A DNA stretch of 33,641 bases from a virus: UHGV virus genome UHGV-0275541; one strand, written 5' to 3'. Positions 1,906 to 33,641 of the stretch are shown here, piece by piece. The position numbers were made by a program, and so were the translations under genes. The notes beneath the pieces were generated by a model. The model ran no database searches, was not told the origin of the DNA, and saw nothing but the letters and a program-made list of their open reading frames with translations. Each line of letters begins with the position of its first letter. Position 1 is the stretch's first letter.

Positions 1906-2952
1906 ATGGCTAATACTGTAAAAATATCCAGTTGTGAGTTAATCAACGCTGATTGCCTGGAATTTATCCAGACCTTACCGGAAAACTCTGTCGACCTGAT
2001 AGTCACAGACCCGCCATACTTTAAAGTGAAGCCCGAGGGCTGGGATAACCAGTGGAAGGGCGACGATGATTACCTGAAATGGCTGGACCAGTGTCTGGCG
2101 CAGTTCTGGCGGGTACTGAAGCCCGCCGGAAGTCTTTACCTGTTCTGTGGTCATCGCCTGGCATCTGATATCGAAATCATGATGCGTGAGCGCTTTAATG
2201 TGCTGAACCACATTATCTGGGCGAAGCCGTCCGGGCGCTGGAACGGGTGCAACAAGGAAAGCCTGCGGACGTATTTTCCGGCAACAGAACGCATTCTGTT
2301 TGCTGAACATTATCAGGGGCCATATCAGCCAAAAAATGACGGCTATGCGGCAAAGGGGCGCGAGCTTAAGCAGCACGTGATGGCTCCGCTGATTTCTTAC
2401 TTTCGTGATGCGCGTGAATCACTGGGGATAACGTCAAAACAGATAGCGGAAGCCACCGGAAAGAAAAACATGGCTTCCCACTGGTTTGGCACCAGTCAGT
2501 GGCAGTTACCAAACAAGGTTGATTACAGAAAACTGCAGGCGTTGTTTGCGCGTGTTGCGGCAGAAAAACATCAACGCGGGGAACTGGAAAAGCCACACCA
2601 CCAGCTGGTCAGCACATACAGTGAACTGAACCGGCGATATGCCAGTCTGCTGGAGGAGTACAAATCCCTGCGGCGTTATTTTTCCGTATCGGCTGCCGTT
2701 CCGTATACGGATGTCTGGACGCACAAGCCTGTGCAGTATTACCCCGGCAAACATCCCTGTGAGAAACCGGCGGATATGTTGCGTCAGATAATTACTGCCA
2801 GCAGTCGTCCGGGAGATTTGGTTGCTGATTTTTTTATGGGGTCGGGGTCAACAGTAAAAGCAGCATTATCGCTGGGAAGGCGTGCAATAGGTGTGGAGCT
2901 GGAAGAAGAGAGATTTAACCAGACTGTAAGCGAAATAAAAGAAAATAGTTAA
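1906..2952 (+). CDS. DNA N6-adenine methyltransferase (beta-class, orphan, no cognate endonuclease in window)
   Basis: 348 aa; catalytic motif IV DPPY (LIVTDPPYF) near N-terminus and AdoMet motif I FxGxG (DFFMGSGST) near C-terminus, the circularly permuted order typical of beta-class amino-MTases. Confidence 0.85.
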   Translation: MANTVKISSCELINADCLEFIQTLPENSVDLIVTDPPYFKVKPEGWDNQWKGDDDYLKWLDQCLAQFWRVLKPAGSLYLFCGHRLASDIEIMMRERFNVLNHIIWAKPSGRWNGCNKESLRTYFPATERILFAEHYQGPYQPKNDGYAAKGRELKQHVMAPLISYFRDARESLGITSKQIAEATGKKNMASHWFGTSQWQLPNKVDYRKLQALFARVAAEKHQRGELEKPHHQLVSTYSELNRRYASLLEEYKSLRRYFSVSAAVPYTDVWTHKPVQYYPGKHPCEKPADMLRQIITASSRPGDLVADFFMGSGSTVKAALSLGRRAIGVELEEERFNQTVSEIKENS

Positions 2953-24003: not shown

Positions 24004-24030
24004 CATATTGTTACCATGGAGGAGACAAGT

Positions 24031-25191
24031 ATGGAAAATTTTGCAAATAAGTTAAAAATACACACAGAGCATGTTGCAAAAATGGGGGTGTTTTGTACAA
24101 CTGAAGAAACGACAAAACAAGCACTCATTATGCCATTACTAGATATTCTTGGTTTTACTCCGTATGATCCAAGAAAAGTCAAAGCTGAGTATAGTGCTGA
24201 CTTCCCCGGGGTTAAGGCTAATGAACGGGTTGATTACGCTTTATTTTGTCATGATGTTCCTGTGATGTTCATTGAGGCGAAATCGTTTTCAGAACAAATT
24301 GATAATCACTGCCCACAGCTATCAAGATATTTTAATTCAACACCGGAAGTTACTATATCAGCCATTACAAATGGTGTTGAATGGCGTTTTTTTACGGATT
24401 TGAAACAAAAAAACATAATGGATTCAACGCCGTTTTTAAAAATAAGAATGGATTCTCTAACTCACTCCGATATTACACAATTATTTCGTTTTCGTTATGA
24501 TAAATTCAAACCAGAGGCTTTACGGACACTGGCTGAAGAAAGTGTTTATTTGAATTCATTTACTAAAACAATCAGTTCTAGTCTTCGTGAAGTTGATCTG
24601 GAGTTTGTTCGATATGTTGCTAGTCGTTCAAATATTGAGAGACAACTTAATCAGAGATTTCTTGAGTTCGTGACTCCATTAGTTAAACAGGCCGTTGAGC
24701 GCGCTGTTAGCGCAATGGTGGTTTCCGGGCTATCTACACAACCGGTAGAGCAAACTAAAGAAAATGATGCAACGGATACACAAGTTAATAACGCCATTGT
24801 TGATGAAGAAAACCCCAACATAATAACCACAGCCAAAGAATTGGAGCTATTTGAAAGGGTAAAACAAATCATACAAACAGAAGATAATATAGAATATAAA
24901 GATACTGAGTCATATTTTGGTGTACTATTGAATGGTAAAACTAATAGATGGCTGTTAAGATTTTATGATAAAAAATCTTCATTTATAACTTTACCTATTT
25001 CGCTTAGTGAAGTTCAGTTGAATGAAATAAGACGAGCTCGACTTGATACGGATGGTAAAAGGATACATATAACTAATCCGGAAGATATACTTCGCATATC
25101 TGGTTTGATTCTGGATTCATACGAGTATGTTAAAAATGATGATAATTTCCGCCGAGGGTCCAGAGCGAGTAGTTTAGAAGAGGTTGAATAA
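24031..25191 (+). CDS. stand-alone PD-(D/E)xK nuclease-like protein resembling the N-terminal domain of type I restriction HsdR (HsdR-N-like)
   Basis: 386 aa from ATG 24031 (GGAGGAG RBS; alternative ATG 24016); motifs TTKQALIMPLLDILGF and ERVDYALF...VMFIEAKS match the HsdR N-terminal nuclease pattern (ADYVLF...VVEAKR in EcoKI HsdR as I recall it); AT-rich codon usage unlike flanking genes. Confidence 0.6.
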   Translation: MENFANKLKIHTEHVAKMGVFCTTEETTKQALIMPLLDILGFTPYDPRKVKAEYSADFPGVKANERVDYALFCHDVPVMFIEAKSFSEQIDNHCPQLSRYFNSTPEVTISAITNGVEWRFFTDLKQKNIMDSTPFLKIRMDSLTHSDITQLFRFRYDKFKPEALRTLAEESVYLNSFTKTISSSLREVDLEFVRYVASRSNIERQLNQRFLEFVTPLVKQAVERAVSAMVVSGLSTQPVEQTKENDATDTQVNNAIVDEENPNIITTAKELELFERVKQIIQTEDNIEYKDTESYFGVLLNGKTNRWLLRFYDKKSSFITLPISLSEVQLNEIRRARLDTDGKRIHITNPEDILRISGLILDSYEYVKNDDNFRRGSRASSLEEVE

Positions 25192-28620: not shown

Positions 28621-29166
28621 ATGTTGCATTTAAAAAATATTACTGCAGGCAATCCGAAAACCGCAGAACAATATCAGATGACAAAACAACATGGTATCAC
28701 CTGGCTTTTTTCGGAGGATGACAGAAACTGGTATGAAGAGCTGAAAAATTTTGCCAGTGACACCATAAAAATGGTTTACACCGGAGACGGGCGCGTGGTG
28801 TGGGTCGGTAAGGATGTGACAGGTATTGAACCCCGTAACGCTAGTGTTATTGAAGTTCCTGATATTACCGCTAACCGCCGTATTACCGTGCCTGGTTACT
28901 GGTTTTACCGCGACGATAAATTTGTCTTCGACTACAAACTTAAAGCGGAAGATGAGCGCGATGCCCTGTTACAACGGGCCAGCATCATGACCAGCGAATG
29001 GGAAAAAGACCTGCTGCTGGGATTAATCAGCGACGAAGACAGGGAAAAACTGAAAGCGTACCGTATATACGCGAAATCGCTGCAGGCGATGGATTTCAGC
29101 ACCATCGCTGATAAAAGCTCATATAACGCCATTGAATGGCCCGTCTCTCCGGAAGCCTCTTCCTGA
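28621..29166 (+). CDS. tail fibre assembly protein (Tfa-like, set 1)
   Basis: 181 aa; C-terminal ...KLKAYRIYAKSLQAMDFSTIADKSSYNAIEWPVSPE resembles the conserved C-terminus of lambda Tfa (...[25 protein letters not shown], from memory). Confidence 0.7.
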   Translation: MLHLKNITAGNPKTAEQYQMTKQHGITWLFSEDDRNWYEELKNFASDTIKMVYTGDGRVVWVGKDVTGIEPRNASVIEVPDITANRRITVPGYWFYRDDKFVFDYKLKAEDERDALLQRASIMTSEWEKDLLLGLISDEDREKLKAYRIYAKSLQAMDFSTIADKSSYNAIEWPVSPEASS

Positions 29167-29189: not shown

Positions 29190-30614
29190 ATGTCTGTAGT
29201 GATATCAGGTGCGCTGATTGATGGCGCAGGCATCCCCATGTCCGGATGCCACATTATTCTGAAATCCCGGGTAAACACCTCAGAGGTGGTGATGCGCACA
29301 GTTGCCGACGTGGTGACAGGCAACTGTGGCGAGTACTGTTTTAAGGCGCAGACCGGAAAATATTGCGTATATCTGAAACAGGACTGGTGCGATGAGTACT
29401 GTGTTGGCGACATTGCTGTATACGACGACTCAAAGCCCGGCACGCTGAATGACTTTCTGACTGCCCTTGATGAAAGCGATTTAAAGCCGGATGTAGTGAA
29501 GCGCTTTGAGGAAATAGTGGCGCAGGCGCAGCAGAGCGCCGAAGCCGCAACGGAAAGCGAGCAGCAGGCAGGGAAACATGCAGGCGCAGCCGCCCGTGCA
29601 AAAGAAGAGGTAAAAAACCTGGCGGAAGGTGTTCAGCAGAACGCCGACGCGGTTGCGGAGGGTAAACAACAGGCCGAAAATCTGGTCTCACGGGTTGAGG
29701 ATACCGCCGCAGAGGTCAGGCAGGACGCTGAAGCCGCGAAAAAGGCCGCATCTGATGCAGAGCATGTCAGGGAGGATATTGATACTGCGTTATCTGCGAC
29801 ACTGAAAACGGCGAATCGTTTATCAGAGCTGGCTGATGAAGGTGAAGAGGCTCAGCAGGAATCCCGTGCTAATCTTGGACTGAAAAGCGCTGCCACAATG
29901 ACGCCACAGAGCGACATTCGTGACCGGACTGAAGGGCGTCTGGCGACACCTGGCGCATTTGGTTTTGGGCATATTTTTTTGCCCGCAGAGCGTATCCGTT
30001 TTAACACAGAGGATGATTTTCTGTCCTGGGTAAGGAATGCGACGCCGGGTGAATATTTTGTTGAGGGTGGCAGTAAAATCATATCCGGAGGTGTGTTGTT
30101 TAACGGGGTGGTCAGCATCCGCTGGGTTGAGGCACGCAATAATCCACCGGAACCGCGATATACAGCAAAGGTCATTATTTTCTACGGTATTAATGGCGAT
30201 GTTTATTACAACCGCTACTGGACAACAGGTAATGGTTATCTGACTGGCTGGGAAAATCTGAAGATTACCTCACAGGACATTATCTCTCTTCTGTCCGGTA
30301 TTGCTCCCGGTACCACGGACGGCTGGTACGGTGCAGGCAGTCTTGTACTGGCGGCTTATAACGGTAAGGGAGACGCAGACACCGACCGCCGGATAAAACG
30401 CGGTTACAGCTATCCGGGTTCACGCCTGAGCGCGGTTGAATTTATGTGTCACGGCACGACCGGTAGCGGGGTTGGATATAACGGCAGCGTTTCCGTATAT
30501 GTGCGGGGTTCTGGTGGTGGTATGCCGGGGTCATATCGGGCACTGTCAGGTGATGGGCTCGGGTCTGCCGGGTCAGCCAGTGTCATGATTGGTTTGTTCA
30601 TACGTATTGCGTAG
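29190..30614 (+). CDS. side tail fibre protein (lambda Stf-like N-terminal domain; divergent C-terminal domain; set 2)
   Basis: 474 aa; N-terminus MSVVISGALIDGAGIPMSGCHIILKSRVNTSEVV...VYDDSKPGTLNDFL aligns by eye with lambda Stf N-terminus (MAVKISGVLKDGTGKPVQNCTIQLKARRNSTTVV...VYEDSQPGTLNDFL); A/E/Q-rich coiled-coil region follows. Confidence 0.75.
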   Translation: MSVVISGALIDGAGIPMSGCHIILKSRVNTSEVVMRTVADVVTGNCGEYCFKAQTGKYCVYLKQDWCDEYCVGDIAVYDDSKPGTLNDFLTALDESDLKPDVVKRFEEIVAQAQQSAEAATESEQQAGKHAGAAARAKEEVKNLAEGVQQNADAVAEGKQQAENLVSRVEDTAAEVRQDAEAAKKAASDAEHVREDIDTALSATLKTANRLSELADEGEEAQQESRANLGLKSAATMTPQSDIRDRTEGRLATPGAFGFGHIFLPAERIRFNTEDDFLSWVRNATPGEYFVEGGSKIISGGVLFNGVVSIRWVEARNNPPEPRYTAKVIIFYGINGDVYYNRYWTTGNGYLTGWENLKITSQDIISLLSGIAPGTTDGWYGAGSLVLAAYNGKGDADTDRRIKRGYSYPGSRLSAVEFMCHGTTGSGVGYNGSVSVYVRGSGGGMPGSYRALSGDGLGSAGSASVMIGLFIRIA

Positions 30615-30621
30615 GTGATTT

Positions 30622-31185
30622 ATGGAAGTAAAAAAAATCGAAAATGCGCGCTGGCTGGAAAGCGGCGCGATTGACTGCGACGTATTGTTTGAGGGGATGG
30701 ACGAAGCCCTGCCATATACAGCGACAGCAGACGATACCGCACCGACGGGCCAGCAAATCTGGCAGGAACTGCAAAGCGGCAAATGGGGTGAAATCGCCCC
30801 GCTTACCGTCACACCAGAAATGCTGGAAGCGGCAAAAGCAGCCAAACGCCGGGAAATCGAAGCATGGCGCACAGAACAGGAGGCTCTGCCGTTCACGTTC
30901 GAATGGAATGGTCGCACCTGGAACGCTGGCCCCGACTCAATGGCTCGTCTTTATCCGGCAGTAATGGCATCAAAGTCTGACACAGCGCGAAAAACCATGG
31001 TATGGGGCGATGCGGAAAACCAGCAGGTGAAGCTGTCAATGCCGGAACTGGAAGAACTGGCAGCAGCAATGGCGCAGGCTGTTGTTGAACGCAATGACGA
31101 GATTTATCGCCGTCAGCGAGAGAAGAAAGAAGCGTTAGACACTCTGGAGGATTTAGATGCGATACGAGCATTTAATGTTGAGTAA
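30622..31185 (+). CDS. putative tail fibre assembly/chaperone-like protein (set 2)
   Basis: 187 aa directly after the Stf-like gene; assignment by position; not similar to the Tfa at 28621. Confidence 0.4.
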   Translation: MEVKKIENARWLESGAIDCDVLFEGMDEALPYTATADDTAPTGQQIWQELQSGKWGEIAPLTVTPEMLEAAKAAKRREIEAWRTEQEALPFTFEWNGRTWNAGPDSMARLYPAVMASKSDTARKTMVWGDAENQQVKLSMPELEELAAAMAQAVVERNDEIYRRQREKKEALDTLEDLDAIRAFNVE

Positions 31186-31361
31186 CGAATAGGTCGCAGT
31201 GAGTTGTTCTGGTATCTGAAGAATGAGGCTCCGGTTGCTGGCTGCAGTCGGAGGTTTATGATGTGTACTCTCACATTGTTGAAGAAATCAATTGCGCAAT
31301 TGGAGAGCAAGAACGTAAGAAAACAAGAGAAAGTCTACAATCGCTTGTAGGGCGTCACTTC

Positions 31362-31391
31362 TTGATTTTTGCATAAATTTTATGATAAAAT
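31362..31391 (+). promoter_or_regulatory. candidate sigma70 promoter for the two-gene inserted operon
   Basis: -35 TTGATT (31362-31367), 18-bp spacer, -10 TAAAAT (31386-31391), in an AT-rich intergenic region about 30 nt upstream of the RBS. Confidence 0.4.
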
Positions 31392-31421
31392 CATGAAGTA
31401 AAAGTGATGGGAGAAACTTTC

Positions 31422-32093
31422 ATGAATATGCCTCATTGTGTTCTGCATACAGGAATTGATTCGGATTTTGTACTTAGTAAACTGGGCTTTACAGAAAATG
31501 ATATTCGCGATGCGTTAATGTCTGCTTTATACGAGCGATGCAAATCCAGTAAGCTCCACCCTAAAGTGGATGCTGGATTCCGCTTTTGGAGTGAGATGGT
31601 TGCCGCGCTTCGCCGTATTCTGATTGGTAAGGGTAACGGCTGGTCTTCTGAAGTAGTCAATCGCATGGAAATGGTCGTTAATTCAAGCAAAGGGGTTAAT
31701 CTGATTATTACCTCAGGTGACGGACATACCGGGCGTCCTGATGGATTGCCTAAAACCAAAAATGCAAAGGGAGAGGCAACTCGCTCGATTGTTCACAACA
31801 ATCCGGGTACATTCGATATGTTCCAAGCAGACACCTTACATTCAGGCAAAGCTGAGATCACGCCGATAGATAGCACCCGAACTTATATCGTTCTGTATTA
31901 TTATGATGCGGCAAATAAAGAAATTCGCTGTGAGGTGTCGTATCCGGTAGGGATGGTGAATCAGGACGGATTTGCCAGAGTAAGCGCGTGGAGTGAGCGA
32001 ATTATTTTAGCTCCTCTGCAATTTGAAGGTGCGGATATTTTCCCTGAACAGGATTTTGATGATGACATATCAATTTCAGTTGAAAGCAAATGA
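31422..32093 (+). CDS. hypothetical protein, no recognisable family (candidate effector/toxin partner of the HTH-peptidase gene)
   Basis: 223 aa from ATG 31422 (GGGAGA RBS 7 nt upstream); AT-rich; stop overlaps downstream start (ATGA at 32090-32093), indicating translational coupling. Confidence 0.6.
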   Translation: MNMPHCVLHTGIDSDFVLSKLGFTENDIRDALMSALYERCKSSKLHPKVDAGFRFWSEMVAALRRILIGKGNGWSSEVVNRMEMVVNSSKGVNLIITSGDGHTGRPDGLPKTKNAKGEATRSIVHNNPGTFDMFQADTLHSGKAEITPIDSTRTYIVLYYYDAANKEIRCEVSYPVGMVNQDGFARVSAWSERIILAPLQFEGADIFPEQDFDDDISISVESK

Positions 32094-33196
32094 GTAACAC
32101 TGTTGATGATGTCAAACGTCTTTTTAATCCGTCTCGACTAAAGCTAGCGCGGATCAGACGCAAACTGACCTTGGCAGAACTGGCGAGGCGAACCGGGTTA
32201 TCTAGTCGTATCGTAATTGAATACGAAAAAGATTATTGTCTTTATGCACCCACGGCAGAGACGGTACGCGCATACGCTAGTGCTTTAAATTATCCAGAGG
32301 CTTTTTTCTTTGGCGATGATGTTGAAACAATTGATCCATTGACTGTTTCATTTCGTTCATTACGCACAACAAAAGCTGCTGACCAGCATGCGGCAATTGG
32401 TGCAGGTGCTTTAGGGGTTATGCTTAGCGATTATTTTAATGCTCGCTTTACTCTTCCTTCGCCTCAATTGCCGAATCTCCGTGGAAGTGAGCCTGAGGTC
32501 GCTGCCCAAGCGATACGCGAGGCTTGGGGGATTGGTAAGAAGAGTATCACCAATGTTGTTCATCTACTTGAGAAATTTGGAGTTAAGGTGTTCTGGCTTT
32601 CAGAGGAAACAGCGAGTATTGATGCTTTTTCGTTCTGGAAAGATGATGTCCCTTATATCTTTCTTAACACACGCAAGTCAGGTGAACGCAGCCGTTTTGA
32701 TGCCGCACATGAATTGGCTCACCTAGTACTTCATCGTCAAGGGGAAGTCAAAGGGCAGGATGCTGAGCGTGAAGCGGATGCTTTTGCTTCTGCATTTCTA
32801 ATGCCTCAGGAAAACGTGATGGCCGTTAAGATGGTGGTCCCGACGTTTGATAAAATTGTGCAATTGAAATCACTCTGGAAAGTTTCGGCTATGGCCCTGA
32901 TTGTCAGAATGCGCAATCTAAATATGCTGACGGAATGGCAGTATAATAGTTTGATGCGTGATGCGACGGCAAAGGGGTATCGAACCGGCGAGCCGGGGGG
33001 AATTGAGCGCGAAAGATCACTCGTTATAGAAAAAATGATGACTGCTCTGGCTGGAGACGGCATTTATCTGGCTCAGTTGAGTGATGAGCTTAACGTACCT
33101 CTCGATGAATTGAGTAGTTTGCTTTATGGAGTTGCGGCAATTAGTGGCGGAAATAGCAAAAGAACACCATCAAGGGCTTCGCTCCGACTAGTATGA
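32090..33196 (+). CDS. HTH-XRE DNA-binding domain fused to ImmA/IrrE-family (M78, COG2856) zinc metallopeptidase
   Basis: 368 aa; N-terminal XRE-type HTH (LKLARIRRKLTLAELARRTGLSSRIVIEYE); HExxH motif HELAHLVLH followed by EREADAFASAFLMP, the characteristic ImmA/IrrE signature. Confidence 0.8.
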   Translation: MSNTVDDVKRLFNPSRLKLARIRRKLTLAELARRTGLSSRIVIEYEKDYCLYAPTAETVRAYASALNYPEAFFFGDDVETIDPLTVSFRSLRTTKAADQHAAIGAGALGVMLSDYFNARFTLPSPQLPNLRGSEPEVAAQAIREAWGIGKKSITNVVHLLEKFGVKVFWLSEETASIDAFSFWKDDVPYIFLNTRKSGERSRFDAAHELAHLVLHRQGEVKGQDAEREADAFASAFLMPQENVMAVKMVVPTFDKIVQLKSLWKVSAMALIVRMRNLNMLTEWQYNSLMRDATAKGYRTGEPGGIERERSLVIEKMMTALAGDGIYLAQLSDELNVPLDELSSLLYGVAAISGGNSKRTPSRASLRLV

Positions 33197-33250
33197 CCCG
33201 TAAATGCTCACATCTGGAGTCGTAGTGAACGTCTTTTGGGCCTGAAAAGT

Positions 33251-33286
33251 AAATCCCCAGTTGTTGCTGACAACTGGGGATTTTTA
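33251..33286. terminator. strong bidirectional intrinsic terminator closing the two-gene operon
   Basis: 10-bp stem TCCCCAGTTG(33254-33263)/CAACTGGGGA(33271-33280), 7-nt loop, T5; A-run upstream. Confidence 0.85.
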
Positions 33287-33371
33287 AAACAGCATATAAA
33301 TCGTAAAGGATATTGTCATATGCCTTATTCAAGAACGTGCTGAGGTTGAGAAGTTTTGGAATTTTTTCGGT

Positions 33372-33421
33372 GGCAAAAATGGGGCAAAACGCTGCAAAAG
33401 GGGCAAAAATGGGGCAACAAA
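33372..33421. repeat. cluster of 4-5 direct GGGGCAAAA-like repeats with about 10-11 bp phasing (phased A-tracts)
   Basis: tGGCAAAAAtGGGGCAAAAcgctGCAAAAGGGGCAAAAAtGGGGCAACAAAAg; too short and spacer-less for CRISPR. Confidence 0.6.
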
Positions 33422-33641
33422 AGAGTGGGTTATCGTAGCTTATTGTTGTCGCTGATAATGTTTAACATATTGAAAAATAAATAAAATACTTATGAGTCAG
33501 ATAGTTGTGATTTTTGCCCTTACTTGTTCAGGTTGTATTGTTCTTTCTTACTAATTTCTTGATTTTGCGACATTTAAAAGCGACTCAATTCGTTATATGG
33601 CATCAGAAGAGTATGCGTCATGCCGGAACGCCCAGCATAAG

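Follow-up and report, generated by a model that had tools for sequence, protein, structure and literature searches.

The distal part of the 33,641-nucleotide viral genome UHGV-0275541 (the window, taken here over its whole length) raises the question of whether a small two-gene cassette at positions 31362-33286 is a new type of system or a copy of a known one. The initial annotation read it as an accessory toxin–antitoxin (TA) or defence module, possibly undescribed, in which a 223-amino-acid protein of a family that could not be named lies 5' of an antitoxin combining an XRE-type helix-turn-helix (HTH) with an M78 metallopeptidase. The two-gene structure is as described. The first open reading frame (ORF1, 31422-32093, + strand) encodes 223 amino acids from its ATG, the second (ORF2, 32090-33196, + strand) encodes 368 amino acids, and the two are joined through a 4-nucleotide ATGA stop/start overlap. 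The assignment to TA and defence modules also stands. By the sequence of both its proteins, however, this cassette near the end of an Escherichia coli prophage is a recognisable copy of RosmerTA, a named family, and not a new system type. ORF1 is rmrT, encoding the soluble Rosmer toxin, and ORF2 is rmrA, encoding the Rosmer antitoxin. We regard it as very probable that a Rac-SA53/phiP27-like E. coli prophage carries this RosmerTA (RmrT/RmrA) module as a moron at its attR end.

Both proteins match RosmerTA models in PADLOC-DB over almost the full model length: ORF1 matches the RmrT model PDLC03935 (E 1.1e-58, model positions 10-206 of 207) and ORF2 the RmrA model PDLC03949 (E 6.6e-143, model positions 2-362 of 363) as well as 13 other RmrA models. 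Homology to an experimentally verified system, SG158 of E. coli OLC-716 (sequences as given in the supplementary data of bioRxiv 10.1101/2022.05.11.491447, Millman et al.), is also detectable, with 29% identity over 211 amino acids between the toxins (E 3e-19) and 44% identity over the full length between the antitoxins (E 1e-106). The 223-amino-acid protein thus has a family after all. As in other RosmerTA antitoxins, ORF2 combines an N-terminal XRE-type HTH with an M78/COG2856 Zn-peptidase carrying an intact HExxH, and the adjacent, co-oriented ORF1 matches a Rosmer toxin model. The ATGA overlap ties them into an operon, and the same pair occurs in nine loci retrieved by protein identity, in at least five distinct contexts. 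With the toxin gene first, an HTH plus M78 antitoxin second and full-length matches to RosmerTA, the cassette is therefore a member of a named and described family. PADLOC calls both proteins RosmerTA, and PADLOC or DefenseFinder would annotate the locus accordingly; as a discovery, the cassette matters little for that reason.

The architecture itself has a published history, contrary to the suggestion that the module might be undescribed. In 2015 Vmi480/Vmi470, a pair with this architecture, was demonstrated to be a TA system (PMC4671572), and RosmerTA was reported in 2022 as an anti-phage TA system made up of a Zn-peptidase antitoxin and a toxin whose function is unknown, from which an rmrA deletion was not transformable (Millman et al., bioRxiv 10.1101/2022.05.11.491447). 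Ernits et al. (PMC10440598) described the family as diverse RmrT toxins, each with an ImmA-like RmrA. The toxin subfamily of the window is known from sequence, and the experiments concern relatives such as OLC-716. By analogy with these relatives, RmrT would be toxic and RmrA would neutralise it. Phage resistance may likewise be carried over from relatives, some of whose homologues are weak or narrow in spectrum. The remaining interest lies in the mechanism of this toxin type, in a conserved candidate operator and in a hint about the toxin fold.

The position of the cassette can be defined precisely. The window is a Rac-SA53/phiP27-type E. coli prophage, with 69-79% of the query covered at 94-96% identity, and it is integrated at the Rac site, where uspF-ompN-nifJ come next. 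An att core, TTGTTCAGGTTGTATTGTTCTTTCTT (attR, 33524-33549), is identical over its 26 bp to the annotated attB of Rac-SA53, and it places the cassette inside the prophage as the last cargo before attR. Between the last tail gene and the shared att-proximal DNA, Rac-SA53 has about 150 nucleotides, whereas the window has about 2.2 kb (31186-33363), an interval that holds the cassette only and that has no counterpart cassette in Rac-SA53. The initial annotation, which put the cassette directly after the last tail-fibre chaperone, was right about the place in substance. The gene immediately 5' (30622-31185) comes after a second tail-fibre gene and encodes a DUF4376 protein homologous to 'tail4' of Rac-SA53, and the recognised Caudo_TAP tail-fibre chaperone lies at 28621-29166. 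The AT-richness claimed for the cassette is real and modest, with G+C contents of 0.446 in the cassette, 0.487 in the window and 0.531 in the adjoining tail-fibre genes. The locus is thus a clean natural example of a defence/TA moron just inside the attR of a Rac-site prophage, with a related toxin-converting prophage, Rac-SA53, that lacks it.

The cassette is rare in E. coli, and homologues of it occur in other genera. It is present with identical layout in 8 of 5,426 complete E. coli genomes, and at 90% identity its proteins turn up on numerous contigs of E. coli and Salmonella, with RmrT labelled 'hypothetical protein'. Homologues retrieved by protein are 52-57% identical in RmrT and about 70% identical in RmrA, apart from locus L015 (83% and 86%, respectively). 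They invariably form a pair with the toxin gene first, and RmrA has 368-369 amino acids in every one, the shorter rmrA gene calls in three loci being artefacts with an in-frame start upstream. Their surroundings differ: in Rouxiella (L004) the pair has a Gabija-like OLD-TOPRIM ATPase/UvrD pair on one side and a type I restriction-modification (R-M) system on the other, in four Serratia lambdoid prophages (L005, L006, L012 and L013) it occupies the replication-to-nin region, and elsewhere it lies in an integrative conjugative element (L014), adjoins recET (L015) or stands beside an integrase remnant (L010). To judge by these contexts, the cassette is a mobile unit that moves among prophages, an integrative conjugative element and defence islands. 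RosmerTA of the OLC-716 type is found in E. coli O55:H7 DEC5B (L016, 4208-6049) on a P4-like satellite, with an Icd-like gene and a P4-family primase as neighbours; 10 of the 5,426 complete genomes have it.

Outside its coding sequence, the cassette has a 43-bp imperfect palindrome, ACTTCTTGATTTTTGCATAAA-T-TTTATGATAAAATCATGAAGT (31357-31399), whose 21-nucleotide arms are 86% complementary and for which the expected number of chance matches is 0. It encloses the sigma-70-type promoter (31362-31391, + strand), which consists of a -35 TTGATT, an 18-nucleotide spacer and an extended -10 TG-n-TAAAAT. The initial annotation had located this promoter correctly. A consensus scan nevertheless found 6 promoter-like sites in the region against 5.2 +/- 2.4 in shuffles, which is not above chance, so that the consensus match alone proves nothing and it is the position within a conserved palindrome that supports the promoter. 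That the promoter lies inside such a palindrome is an addition of the present analysis. The palindrome is found in 9 of 9 loci retrieved by protein identity, 64-76 nucleotides 5' of the rmrT start and in unrelated genomic contexts, and these copies agree with that of the window at 34-38 of 43 positions. The nine loci were chosen by protein and hence independently of the DNA pattern. The outer arms, ACTTCTTGATTT...AAATCATGAAG(T/C), are near-invariant and contain both the -35 and the -10 hexamer; the intergenic sequence around the palindrome is not alignable. When 185,579 species genomes were scanned for the pattern, three further palindromes came to light, each with rmrT and rmrA sequence downstream, although one of these loci (L007) ends after the first ~24 rmrA codons; having been found by the pattern, these three genomes are not independent evidence.

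The palindrome co-varies with the protein expected to read it. In palindrome-bearing systems, the helix predicted to make the recognition contacts in RmrA, GLSSRI(V/I)IEYEK, hardly varies, with N for the second S in one locus. The verified OLC-716 RmrA has ELTSKTISNYEK at the recognition helix and a different palindrome at the same place in its promoter. Because the palindrome is conserved and co-varies with the recognition helix, we infer that an RmrA dimer represses its own promoter through the 43-bp palindrome, as in classical type II TA operons. The palindrome is thus a candidate RmrA operator that is directly testable.

Other signals are consistent with a self-contained transcription unit. 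A Shine-Dalgarno sequence, GGGAG (31409-31413, + strand), lies 8 nucleotides before the rmrT ATG at 31422, and rmrT homologues have GGAG or GAAGAG at an equal distance from the start. GTG and ATG codons at 31404 and 31407 would allow longer forms, and proteins of 228 or 229 amino acids appear in some annotations. The 223-amino-acid start is preferred because of the position of GGGAG and because homologues of other genera begin at the equivalent Met. Downstream of rmrA, an intrinsic terminator (33251-33286, + strand) consists of a hairpin at 33251-33283 with a 15-bp stem and a 3-nucleotide loop, followed by a T-run. Its folding free energy is -24.6 kcal/mol (z -4.35), and equally good folds were found in 0 of 200 shuffles. 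The terminator noted initially is therefore real and strong, and the 10-bp stem ascribed to it is the G+C-rich core of the 15-bp stem. A second, terminator-like hairpin lies 3' of the tail-fibre accessory gene (31229-31253, + strand); its 10-bp stem includes 6 G-C pairs, and its T tail is weak. This hairpin may shield the cassette from transcripts that run on from the late operon, although hairpins of this type are no rarer in shuffles (1 site found against 2.1 expected). An Rfam scan of 31000-33641 returned only sub-threshold chance matches on the terminator hairpin.

RmrA has the two domains that were first noticed in its sequence. Pfam HTH_3 covers residues 17-72 (nucleotides 32138-32305, E 3.8e-10) and Peptidase_M78 residues 161-274 (nucleotides 32570-32911, E 4.6e-21). 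The HExxH motif is HELAH (residues 207-211, nucleotides 32708-32722), within a peptidase core that reads HELAHLVLH...EREADAFASAFLMP. The downstream E-x-E-A-D-x-F-A motif is retained, and both HExxH and the C-terminal tail are conserved among homologues. Since HExxH and E-x-E-A-D-x-F-A are kept, RmrA is expected to be an active peptidase. Against the NCBIfam equivalog NF052239 (spr1629-family repressor/antitoxin), RmrA scores 127 bits, under the cutoff of 335. Within the rmrA gene, a stretch of the peptidase core (32573-32986, 414 nucleotides) is 86% identical to genes annotated as ImmA/IrrE metallo-endopeptidases in other E. coli strains (for example NZ_CP023388.1, 1422433-1422846), in which the remainder of the cassette is missing. 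Such genes may belong to other Rosmer-type or related modules with a recombined peptidase segment.

After a variable Gly/Ser/Lys-rich linker, RmrA ends in L(K/R)LV (residues 365-368, window positions 33182-33193). This ending, with or without one extra residue, also occurs in L004, L006, L010, L012, L014 and L015, and the verified OLC-716 RmrA shares it as LRLV. The tail is a candidate docking or degron element. It is of interest in view of the reported ClpX/ClpP dependence of Rosmer-type modules: clpP is essential with such a module in E. coli E101, and clpX is essential with RipAB in Streptococcus pneumoniae and with Rosmer-type modules in three Pectobacteriaceae. These reports of essentiality suggest that neutralisation in Rosmer-type modules needs ClpXP. 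In classical type II TA systems, unlike this suggested role, proteases degrade the antitoxin. The ClpP-dependent pair of E. coli E101 (WP_001179380.1/WP_000481765.1) differs in its accessions from the OLC-716 Rosmer system and is a putative member of the toxin family of the window. If Rosmer modules generally make ClpXP essential, carriage of the cassette would change the set of essential host genes in a lysogen.

The toxin is the less familiar partner. RmrT matches no Pfam, NCBIfam or PHROG family, and Pfam domains were found in 0 of 144 sampled members of its family. A profile search of 1.84 billion representatives, counted at 50% clustering, recovered 1,471 family members at E <= 1e-3 and 667 at E <= 1e-10, which are stand-alone proteins mostly of 210-240 amino acids. 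An AlphaFold2 model built from a 144-sequence alignment (pLDDT 89.3, pTM 0.84) replaced an earlier one from 16 close homologues (pLDDT 68). It begins with three helices, followed by a beta-meander (74-79, 82-87 and 92-99), a helix at 118-126, three long strands within 153-195 and an acidic disordered C-terminal tail at residues 200-223. G99, G117, E171 (100%) and R193 are invariant in the family, and R64, W74, T103, G104, P110, N127, R169, S173, P175 and W190 are near-invariant. Charged residues are frequent at D100 (71%), K116 (88%), D162 (82%) and E167 (82%), so that acidic and basic residues appear numerous enough to form a metal-dependent active site. No segment of RmrT is hydrophobic (19-residue hydropathy at most 0.76).

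Taken together with the predicted fold, these features make it close to an even chance, or slightly less, that RmrT has a divergent restriction-endonuclease-like fold and is a toxin directed at nucleic acid. A member of the PD-(D/E)xK nuclease superfamily would have an alpha-beta-beta-beta-alpha-beta core, which RmrT may share, and catalytic D...(D/E)xK residues on strands 2 and 3; a canonical motif is not found at those strands. PDB sequence searches with two RmrT profiles and with RmrA gave nothing significant; their best match, the restriction endonuclease 2c1l, had an E-value of 0.25 and was disregarded. Foldseek against viral predicted structures (BFVD) gave no match for RmrT at E <= 0.001, and hhalign detected no relationship between the RmrT profile and the window's own HSDR_N nuclease-domain protein. 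None of the papers searched gives a mechanism for the RmrT toxin type. For this founding Rosmer toxin type, the confident model, the invariant residues (G99, G117, E171 and R193) and the fold hint provide concrete targets for mutation.

Comparison with known systems places the cassette within a broader group of HTH plus Zn-peptidase antitoxins. The closest parallel is OLC-716 RosmerTA (RmrT WP_000286846.1, RmrA WP_000483388.1), in which the toxin gene likewise precedes the antitoxin gene, with sizes of 239 and 370 amino acids against 223 and 368 here. Both systems have homologous toxins and homologous HTH plus M78 antitoxins, including the C-terminal LRLV, and both have a palindrome between the -35 and -10 elements and lie on a mobile element. 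They differ in toxin subfamily (PDLC03935 here), in operator sequence and HTH recognition helix, and in the carrier, which is a P4-like satellite for OLC-716 and the attR end of a Rac-site prophage here. In MGIVmi1 of Vibrio mimicus (Luo et al. 2015, PMC4671572), Vmi480, a toxin with no assigned function, is encoded ahead of a large HTH plus Zn-peptidase antitoxin, Vmi470. Vmi480 kills E. coli, and Vmi470 could not be deleted alone (PMC4671572). Vmi480 has 198 amino acids, a 5-bp gap replaces the 4-nucleotide overlap, and the two toxins were compared by description only. RmrT-D5/RmrA-D25 of Gordonia phage Kita is a phage-encoded pair with an RmrA-type protease antitoxin and narrow-spectrum defence (Ernits et al. 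2023, PMC10440598). RmrT-D5 is membrane-targeted and depolarises cells (PMC10440598), in contrast to the RmrT of the window with its putative restriction-endonuclease-like fold and lack of a hydrophobic segment. S. pneumoniae RipA/RipB (Spr1630/Spr1629) is a Rosmer-type system with an XRE plus ImmA-like antitoxin and ClpX-dependent neutralisation; the target of RipA is the DnaN clamp, and no relationship of this toxin to the present RmrT has been demonstrated. PD-Lambda-2, composed of a HigB-like toxin, an Xre-peptidase and a third component, was rejected as an identification. The cassette has two genes only, and its match to PD-Lambda-2_B has an E-value of 0.0078. RmrT has no HigB or RelE match in Pfam or PADLOC.

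The same pairing of activities is found in ImmR/ImmA of ICEBs1, IrrE/DdrO and CapH/CapP, in which an M78/COG2856 metallopeptidase acts with an XRE HTH DNA-binding partner, much as RmrA combines the two. In these pairs, however, the activities are on separate proteins that control the transcription of other genes, whereas RmrA is a fusion whose partner is a toxin. Ernits et al. (PMC10440598) suggest that Rosmer-like systems follow the logic of these pairs, with cleavage of the HTH domain. One could imagine that RmrA, like CapH/CapP, controls the transcription of a defence operon next to it, and PADLOC does return weak matches to capP (E 1.3e-19) and capH (E 1e-5). These matches are at the domain level only, the E-values for the RmrA models are better by over 100 orders of magnitude, and no operon of a cyclic-oligonucleotide-based antiphage signalling system (CBASS) or other effector is adjacent, since the terminator, attR and host uspF come next. 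A role as CBASS regulator was ruled out, and a controller of this kind is the most improbable reading that we considered. Scarcely more probable is a lysogeny or damage switch of the ImmR/ImmA or IrrE/DdrO type, in which RmrA would be a repressor fused to its anti-repressor protease and the 223-amino-acid protein a regulated phage gene product and not a toxin. The domains of RmrA are the same as those of ImmR plus ImmA, PHROG 2439 is labelled 'transcriptional regulator', and a palindromic operator would suit a repressor. The location argues otherwise: the cassette is at the prophage end opposite the immunity/early region, it is absent from the otherwise 94% identical Rac-SA53, and the same two-gene unit occurs in non-phage contexts. 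The full-length matches are, moreover, to RmrA models and not to phage repressors.

Within TA modules, the choice is between defence and addiction. Pure addiction, in which post-segregational killing would stabilise the prophage or mobile element with no anti-phage role, agrees with the indispensability of the antitoxin in relatives, with the presence of the cassette always on mobile elements, and with the ineffectiveness of Streptococcus thermophilus Rosmer homologues against most phages tested. Verified family members do protect against phages, however, and the Rouxiella homologue, flanked by a Gabija-like pair and by a type I R-M system, occupies a typical defence island. The two roles are not mutually exclusive, and addiction as the sole role is improbable. 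In the preferred reading, as an anti-phage TA module, the sequence shows one sigma-70 promoter for both genes and translational coupling through the ATGA overlap, and binding of the dimeric RmrA HTH to the palindrome around the promoter would repress both. RmrT would be a soluble cytoplasmic protein that, if the modelled fold is a guide, probably acts on nucleic acid and not on the membrane. RmrA would neutralise it, as in relatives in which rmrA cannot be deleted. By the same analogy, neutralisation may also need host ClpX/ClpP, and the intact HExxH Zn-peptidase may process the toxin or RmrA itself. A superinfecting phage might then upset the balance and release RmrT, and the cell would arrest before the phage cycle is completed. 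Such arrest would protect the lysogen population and hence the prophage, as suggested by the narrow-spectrum defence of relatives.

A more specific version of this scheme is tentative and, on balance, unlikely to hold in full. The RmrT family would be divergent nucleases of restriction-endonuclease fold, neutralised by RmrA-dependent, ClpXP-coupled proteolytic processing rather than by simple sequestration, with the L(K/R)LV ending of RmrA or the acidic tail of RmrT as degron or docking element and with expression set by RmrA on the palindrome. If true, nuclease activity combined with proteolytic processing would give the founding Rosmer toxin type its first mechanism, and it would explain why Rosmer-type modules make clpX/clpP essential.

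The prophage carries other genes of possible relevance to defence. An orphan type II DNA methyltransferase is encoded at 1906-2952 (+ strand; PADLOC MTase_II, E 1.1e-153), in a region common to phiP27 and Stx-phage late regulatory regions, with no cognate endonuclease seen. A stand-alone 391-amino-acid protein encoded at 24016-25191 (+ strand) carries the nuclease domain found at the N terminus of type I restriction R subunits (Pfam HSDR_N, E 5.6e-14, and HSDR_N_2, E 2.4e-9). Its gene lies between a baseplate V-like gene and baseplate J, where Rac-SA53 has the reverse-strand genes ant, rac61 and rac62. As the genes at this position differ, the tail module has a second variable cargo slot. The 391-amino-acid protein has no PADLOC match and is a possible candidate for a single-gene defence or exclusion system not yet catalogued.

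The DNA on both sides of the cassette also has features of its own. In the region 29190-31185, the second tail-fibre gene is intact and encodes 474 amino acids with a phage_tail_N domain. In the region compared with it (L001, 5253-5986) from OkiPb01675, a strain that has the same cassette, this gene is reduced to a 33-amino-acid N-terminal remnant, and its Rac-SA53 homologue encodes about 1,060 amino acids. With the gene intact, a remnant or about 1,060 codons long across relatives, the region just 5' of the cassette is highly mosaic. On the other side, direct repeats at 33372-33417, GGCAAAAATGGGGCAA (two copies) and AAA(T/A)GGGGCAA (three copies), lie about 110-150 nucleotides before the att core, within DNA common to Rac-SA53 and the K-12 Rac end, and resemble arm-type recombinase or Xis binding sites of attP.

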